NCBI RefSeq assembly: GCF_017348835.2 | Contig: NZ_CP071375.1 | Direction: 5' to 3' (one strand) | From: Escherichia coli | Lineage (GTDB): Bacteria; Pseudomonadota; Gammaproteobacteria; Enterobacterales; Enterobacteriaceae | DNA: 64,000 nucleotides | In this document: positions 11,102-11,897 of the stretch, piece after piece | Layout of the letters: each line of letters begins with the position of its first letter | Position numbering within the stretch: position 1 is the first letter of the stretch | Made by a program: the position numbers and the translations under genes | Notes under the pieces: generated by a model | What the model was told of the DNA's origin: nothing | Seen by the model: only the letters and a program-made list of their open reading frames with translations | The model's database searches: none

Positions 11102-11803
11102 CTACAACTTCAGAATTTCTTTCACAAACGGAATGGTCAGCTTACGTTGCGCGGTAATCGACGCACGATCCAACTGATCCAACGTCATAAATAGCGTGCG
11201 CATTTCTCTGTCGAGCCGCTTCAGCAAGAAACGCCCCACATCTTCCGGCAGTTCAAAACCACGCAAACGCGCGCGTAACTGTAGCGCCTGCAACTTATCT
11301 TCATCAGAAAGTGGCTGCAATTTGTAGATCTGCCCCCAGTCGAGTCGCGACGCGAGATCCGGTAATCCCAGATTCAACTGCCGCGGTGGACGATCGCCGG
11401 TGATCAACAACCGTGTTTTGCCCGATTCCAGAATTCGATTGTAGAGATCGAAAATCGCCATCTCCCACAACTCATCGCCTGCAATACACTCAATGTTGTC
11501 GATACAGACCAGCGACAAATGCTCCATACCGTCAAGCACTTCCGGAACAAACCAGGTGCGTTTATCCAGCGGGACATAGCCCACCGCATCGCCACGCTGC
11601 GACAATTCCGCGCAAGCCGCGTGCAGCAGATGGCTGCGCCCCGCGCCTTCGCGTGCCCAGAGATAGATGTAACCGCTATGTTCCTGACGCAGCACGTTTT
11701 GCAGCGCGGCCAGTAAAGAGGAGTTATCCCCCGGCCAGAAACTTGCAAAGGTTTCGTCGTCAGGAAGATAAAGTGGCAAAGAGAGCTGTGCCGGTGTGTT
11801 CAG
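11102..11803 (-). CDS. hda: DnaA-inactivating protein Hda; start taken at an in-frame CTG with Shine-Dalgarno (233 aa)
   Basis: DnaA-domain-III-like AAA+ ORF. The longest ORF (to 11848) is 248 aa, but Hda is recalled as 233 aa initiating at CUG; a CTG at 11801-11803 has GAGGT 5 nt upstream. Confidence 0.8.
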
Positions 11804-11897
11804 AGATACCTCAACCAGGATTTCACAAAATCGCGAGAAGTTTACCACAGAATCCCATGATGTTTGAACCGGGCAGCAACACTGCCCGGTCGGTACA

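Follow-up and report, generated by a model that had tools for sequence, protein, structure and literature searches.

Evidence for translation of Escherichia coli hda from a CUG codon conserved in Enterobacterales

The hda locus and its product

The DNA analysed is a stretch of 64,000 nucleotides from Escherichia coli (contig NZ_CP071375.1), referred to below as the window. Here hda lies on the minus strand, in the gene order bepA(yfgC)–yfgD–hda–uraA–upp–purM. The features of the hda coding region that are needed here are the following.

11102–11803, minus strand: hda coding sequence as used, DnaA regulatory inactivator Hda; CTG start to TAG stop, 233 aa, RefSeq CDS of 702 nt
11801–11803, minus strand: CTG (CUG) initiation codon, invariant in the compared Enterobacterales loci
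11808–11812, minus strand: Shine-Dalgarno sequence GAGGT, 4 nt before the CTG and kept in 87/87 loci
11846–11848, minus strand: GTG opening the longest open reading frame, a false start; its T and G double as the TG of the extended −10 element

An earlier note on this DNA had described a longest open reading frame starting at 11848, in which an in-frame CTG at 11803–11801, 15 codons on, leaves a product of 233 amino acids. Both the frame, which has 248 codons and runs from 11848 to 11102 on the minus strand, and the codon were confirmed from the sequence. The longest frame was also said to open with ATG at 11848, which was a misreading, as codon 11848–11846 reads GTG. The start region varies little within the species. 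Of 5,426 complete genomes of E. coli, 5,425 match the 401 nt around the hda start, almost always at 99% identity or above. Over the 61 nt from 11850 to 11790, complete E. coli genomes gave 5426 matching records, and 5397 of these reached at least 99% identity. For the same 61 nt, the matches listed were 100% identical, with at most a partial mismatch elsewhere. The gene is the same as E. coli K-12 hda (b2496, UniProt P69931 HDA_ECOLI, NP_416991.2 / WP_001307333.1), from which the window locus does not differ.

The translated 248-codon frame was identified as Hda by the equivalog model NCBIfam NF005982 (476.6 bits against a cut-off of 268) and by TIGR03420 (281.4 against a cut-off of 194.8). 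The product is the DnaA regulatory inactivator Hda, an AAA+ protein with a Box VII arginine finger and an ADP-binding site. The NF005982 match begins at residue 14 of the 248-residue frame and leaves the N-terminal extension uncovered. Residues 16–248 are 100% identical to the crystallised E. coli Hda in the Hda–β-clamp structure, PDB 5X06 chain E, which consists of a 20-residue tag followed by MNTPAQ..., with Met replacing Leu16 of the open reading frame. The β-clamp-binding motif QLSLPL occupies residues 6–11 of the CTG-start product, and Kim 2017 numbers the motif 6-QLSLPL-11, places the arginine finger at Arg153 and describes the P-loop.

Between the hda stop (11102) and yfgD, palindromic units resembling REP/BIME elements extend over 10992–11090. 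The sequence GCCGGATGCGACG is found at 10995–11007, with inverted partners at 11015–11027 and 11075–11087, and these units, 3′ of hda, are overlapped by spurious open reading frames (e.g. 10993–11157).

The CTG codon and its conservation in Enterobacterales

The GAGGT sequence at 11812–11808 is separated from the CTG by 4 nt (ATCT, 11807–11804), and its duplex with the 16S rRNA 3′ end at this codon is predicted at −6.9 kcal/mol. Of the earlier claim that GAGGT precedes the CTG at optimal spacing, the Shine-Dalgarno sequence itself stands; a 4-nt spacer lies at the short end of the usual range and is not demonstrably optimal. Within the hda frame, 51 in-frame codons are canonical or near-cognate starts, CTG accounting for 15 of them, and an internal ATT at 11455 has a Shine-Dalgarno duplex of −7.3 kcal/mol at usable spacing, equal to or better than that of the CTG. 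The combination of Shine-Dalgarno sequence and CTG is therefore ruled out as a statistically distinctive signal inside the hda frame. Because it is unremarkable in a single sequence, evidence from outside is needed, and it is the comparative and transcript data that make the signal decisive.

For the comparison, a scan of species-representative genomes found hda in 80 Enterobacteriaceae loci, at protein identities of 92–100%, so that 81 sequences were compared. The set was completed by six loci of Yersinia, Erwinia, Photorhabdus, Hafnia, Dickeya and Morganella, which represent other Enterobacterales families, for a total of 87 loci in seven families. Every Enterobacteriaceae sequence (81/81) and every locus of the other families (6/6) has CTG at the aligned start. 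Leu at positions 7, 9, 11 and 13 is encoded by three to six synonymous codons each in the 81 sequences, unlike the invariant CTG at the start. GAGGT was found in 81/81 Enterobacteriaceae and in 87/87 loci overall, and the 4-nt spacer in 80/81 and 86/87 respectively. In an alignment of 82 unique sequences the spacer bases between the two elements were 63% conserved, compared with 100% for GAGGT and CTG. All six loci of the other families have the architecture GAGGT-N4-CTG-AAY-ACN-CC in common.

The sequence upstream of the CTG behaves differently from that downstream. In the alignment of 82 unique sequences, identity at the three codon positions was 0.92/0.985/0.79 for codons 2–16 after the CTG, and 0.77/0.77/0.79 for the 15 upstream "codons", where there is no coding periodicity. 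Coding periodicity and amino acid conservation thus start at the CTG. Sixteen alignment columns upstream of it are gapped, and frame-breaking indels occur in the "extension". Between the nearest upstream stop and the CTG, 46 of the 80 Enterobacteriaceae species have no in-frame ATG, GTG or TTG; an in-frame stop falls inside the 15-codon "extension" in 60 of the 80, and an in-frame start at −15 codons is found in just 7 of 80 other species. From the −15 start the frame is open in E. coli, as well as in those loci of Escherichia, Citrobacter and Intestinirhabdus that have this start. In E. albertii the GTG is retained and there is a stop at −18, while in one E. coli representative an extra C shifts the frame of the "extension". 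Judged from these alignments, hda has the marks of a near-cognate start: a conserved codon at the 5′ edge of the coding region, a Shine-Dalgarno sequence at a functional distance and no usable canonical start upstream.

Five hda genes from outside the order served as outgroups. Read as DNA, their starts are ATG, ATG, GTG, GTG and TTG, which rejects a non-AUG start as the rule throughout Gammaproteobacteria. Within this small sample of five, the comparison shows a CTG start that is specific to Enterobacterales. The N-termini of the outgroup proteins are pinned in 4/5 loci by in-frame stops 2–8 codons upstream, and their clamp motif, QL[SP]LPL, lies 2–10 residues from the N-terminus. A motif so close to the N-terminus fits the 233-residue form of E. 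coli Hda, in which the glutamine is Q6, and not the 248-residue form, in which it is Q21.

Annotations of hda differ in length. In RefSeq/PGAP (WP_001307333.1) and in K-12 MG1655 (NP_416991.2, 2618075..2618776) the coding sequence has 702 nt, and its first base corresponds to window 11803. The older NC_000913.2 annotation of hda had 747 nt, and the K. pneumoniae orthologue was once given 678 nt. The 248- and 233-residue sequences each occur on at least 1000 contigs; Logan, ENA, JGI and part of the GenBank records carry the former, RefSeq and UniProt HDA_ECOLI the latter. Across Enterobacterales records, Hda lengths of 200, 221, 225, 233, 235, 238, 241, 243, 244, 248 and 258 aa are found. The expectation in the earlier note that automatic annotation over-extends hda by 15 codons is therefore borne out for ab initio callers, which produce the 248-residue form and other wrong lengths, and fails for RefSeq/PGAP, which starts the gene at the CTG.

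The 235-residue calls in Yersinia, Erwinia, Hafnia and Dickeya (loci L084, L085, L087 and L088) start at the GTG of GAGGTG, inside the Shine-Dalgarno sequence and two codons ahead of the conserved CTG. For some species 233- and 235-residue forms stand side by side in RefSeq, and the NF005982 model, with 235 positions, appears to include the two additional residues of these calls. In 17/87 loci (L006, L008–L010, L012–L016, L018 and similar; Salmonella, Citrobacter) an in-frame ATG was also observed about 24 nt, or 8 codons, before the CTG. This ATG falls within the predicted leader, some 7 nt from the predicted transcription start site (TSS), and has no Shine-Dalgarno sequence. The 241-residue Salmonella Hda records in GenBank begin at this ATG. 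The widespread 235- and 241-residue annotations thus have identifiable causes.

Transcription of hda and the region upstream of its leader

The following features lie between the uraA stop codon (TAA, 11900–11898) and the hda start.

11867–11891, minus strand: stable hairpin (−21.8 kcal/mol, z −5.35) directly following the uraA stop, without a U-tract
11863–11868, minus strand: possible weak −35 hexamer TTCAAA, a 4/6 match with an 18-nt spacer, read from the sequence
11839–11847, minus strand: extended −10 element TGgTAAACT, with TG at 11847–11846 and hexamer TAAACT at 11844–11839; putative promoter element
11832, minus strand: TSS (a G) of the hda-only transcription unit, from the SMRT-Cappable-seq operon table
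11804–11832, minus strand: 29-nt 5′ untranslated leader of the hda-only mRNA, from the mapped TSS

Every Enterobacteriaceae locus (81/81), like the six loci of other Enterobacterales families, contains the pattern TGnTA[A/C/G][A/G]CT (87/87 in all), and the mean column identity of the extended −10 block in the alignment of 82 unique sequences was 0.91. From the position of this element a TSS was predicted about 7 nt downstream, at window ≈11832, corresponding to K-12 2618805. The published TSS coincides with the prediction: the SMRT-Cappable-seq table of Yan et al. (2018), on genome NC_000913.3, contains the entry "b2496, 2618805, reverse, same, b2496", and with the offset of 2606973 between K-12 and window coordinates NC_000913.3 2618805 is window 11832. 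The hexamer TAAACT ends 7 nt before the mapped TSS, which is the 7th nucleotide after it. The element is built like an extended −10 promoter for sigma-70, and we infer that TGnTAAACT is a functional hda promoter.

Other searches of this region gave no call. A consensus promoter scan of 11650–12400 called no promoter, the site having 8/12 hexamer matches, below the threshold of the tool. The Cappable-seq 2016 tables contained no matching hda TSS, and the sole TSS reported there by Kim et al. (2012) is a 2-read site at 2617463, inside uraA. In the Ferrimonas-like outgroup locus L091, TGTTACACT is found about 45 nt upstream of the GTG start and resembles the extended −10 element of Enterobacterales; judged by this motif, the promoter type may be older than the CTG start.

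The mapped TSS bears directly on the GTG that opens the longest frame. This codon lies 16 nt upstream of the 5′ end of the hda-only transcript and forms part of the promoter element, so that translation of the mRNA from the gene's own promoter cannot begin there. Some other RNAs containing hda do carry the GUG, as Yan et al. (2018) also report a read-through unit, b2498|b2497|b2496 (upp-uraA-hda), from TSS 2620909 at the upp promoter. The stable hairpin without a U-tract that follows uraA fits the reported read-through unit. Its 3′ arm, CCCGGTT, is conserved across genera and overlaps the putative −35 hexamer of the hda promoter, an arrangement that could couple uraA read-through to hda promoter activity.

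Two kinds of regulatory element were considered in the leader and rejected. Regulatory RNA structure was discounted on z-scores of +0.52 and +1.40. A conserved leader mini-ORF acting by termination and reinitiation was discounted on the heterogeneity of leader open reading frames among genera and on their absence from 16 species. In the window, an out-of-frame GTG at 11826–11824 (minus strand) opens an 8-codon mini-ORF, whose UGA at 11802–11800 overlaps the CUG start.

Alternative starts and the meaning of the CUG codon

Translation solely from the GTG at 11848, making Hda the 248-residue protein of the longest frame, would agree with the original 747-nt annotation in NC_000913.2, with the use of the first canonical start in that frame and with the wide distribution of the 248-residue form among automatic records. 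In the literature, for whose usage of the hda start Chodavarapu et al. are cited with Kim et al., the start of the longer form is termed the "originally annotated GUG", and a His-tagged protein made from the GUG start was reported to be active. Against these points, the codon is upstream of the mapped hda TSS, its Shine-Dalgarno-like pairing is a weak GGGA (−4.0 kcal/mol), and the extension is excluded by the family profiles, the solved structure and the reference annotation. With a −15 start in so few other species, stops within the extension in most of them, indels and no periodicity, we consider it extremely unlikely that this is the true and only start. A start at the downstream TTG 11779–11777, codon 9 of the short form, which would give 225 residues, is less credible still and can practically be dismissed. 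The codon is a canonical start, and 225-residue (678-nt) annotations exist in some Klebsiella, Pantoea and Serratia records; initiation here would bisect the clamp motif QLSLPL, the codon is TTG in 43/81 sequences, CTG in 37 and TTA in 1, it has essentially no Shine-Dalgarno sequence (−1.7 kcal/mol), and periodicity and amino acid conservation already begin at the CTG.

It is also conceivable that both upstream codons are used in E. coli, with CUG as the main start and a minor 248-residue isoform made from the GUG on read-through upp-uraA-hda transcripts. The reported unit from TSS 2620909 carries the GUG beyond a uraA hairpin that has no U-tract, as a start codon GUG is inherently far stronger than CUG, and the frame is open in E. 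coli and in those Escherichia, Citrobacter and Intestinirhabdus loci with a −15 start. However, the extension is unconserved even within the genus, as the E. albertii stop and the E. coli frameshift demonstrate, and the GUG is located about 19 nt 3′ of the −21.8 kcal/mol hairpin with the weak GGGA as its Shine-Dalgarno-like element. Such an isoform seems to us very improbable.

Initiation at the CUG is thus the reading we prefer. The earlier note's proposal that hda starts at this internal codon is supported by RefSeq, by PDB 5X06, by the residue numbering in use, by conservation and by the mapped TSS, and we are highly confident that hda is translated from the CUG at 11803–11801 to give a 233-residue Hda with the clamp motif QLSLPL at residues 6–11. 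In the one N-terminomics supplement searched, that of TRAINSPOTTER, no N-terminal peptide of Hda was present. The hda CUG start is not new, and the reference annotation already uses it. It was reportedly identified experimentally by Su'etsugu et al. in 2008. A full-text literature search, which did not reach that primary paper, found no worded statement of the CUG start. What is added here is that the arrangement of CTG and GAGGT is invariant across seven Enterobacterales families, and that the GTG of the false start belongs to a conserved extended −10 element and precedes the mapped TSS.

For this window the result serves as an annotation check: the correct Hda has 233 residues, with the clamp motif at its extreme N-terminus. 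An N-terminal extension beside the clamp-binding motif could mislead biochemical work, and hda illustrates how ab initio gene callers fail at non-canonical starts.

The expression of hda may be pictured as follows. Transcription would start at 11832 from a sigma-70 extended −10 promoter (TGgTAAACT, 11847–11839) with a weak −35 in the uraA–hda spacer. The GAGGU in the short, unstructured 29-nt leader would pair with the 16S rRNA 3′ end and set the 30S P-site on the CUG 4 nt on, and the CUG would be decoded as Met by initiator fMet-tRNA. In reporter assays CUG initiates with about 1–2% of the efficiency of AUG, and this low efficiency most likely keeps Hda scarce. The CTG is invariant across the whole order though a single C→A change would give AUG, which suggests selection for low Hda output; we infer that the weak start codon has been selected to limit the level of Hda.

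Initiation factor 3 (IF3) discriminates against near-cognate start codons. A more far-reaching proposal, which we regard as speculative and on balance unlikely, is that the CUG with its GAGGU fixed 4 nt away constitutes a selected throttle on Hda throughout the order, whose output could vary inversely with IF3 activity as for infC. If so, the state of the translation machinery, or the growth rate, would be coupled to the rate of DnaA-ATP inactivation.

The hda promoter resembles other extended −10 (TGn) sigma-70 promoters in having TG one base before TAnnnT, a −35 that matches poorly (4/6) and a transcript that starts 7 nt beyond the hexamer. Unlike generic promoters of this type, the hda −10 element, whose role as a promoter is putative, overlaps sequence once annotated as coding. 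Among non-canonical starts, a systematic start-codon study (bioRxiv 10.1101/063800) treats just infC and pcnB as confirmed in E. coli and omits hda, which indicates that outside the replication field the CUG start receives too little recognition. The start codon of hda is CUG, whereas infC and pcnB use AUU, and the AUU of infC is the basis of the demonstrated IF3 autoregulatory loop. We know of no loop of the IF3 type for hda. What hda shares with infC (IF3) and pcnB (poly(A) polymerase) is a near-cognate start with about 1–2% of the efficiency of AUG, a regulatory protein of low abundance as the product, and positioning of the start that depends on the Shine-Dalgarno sequence.
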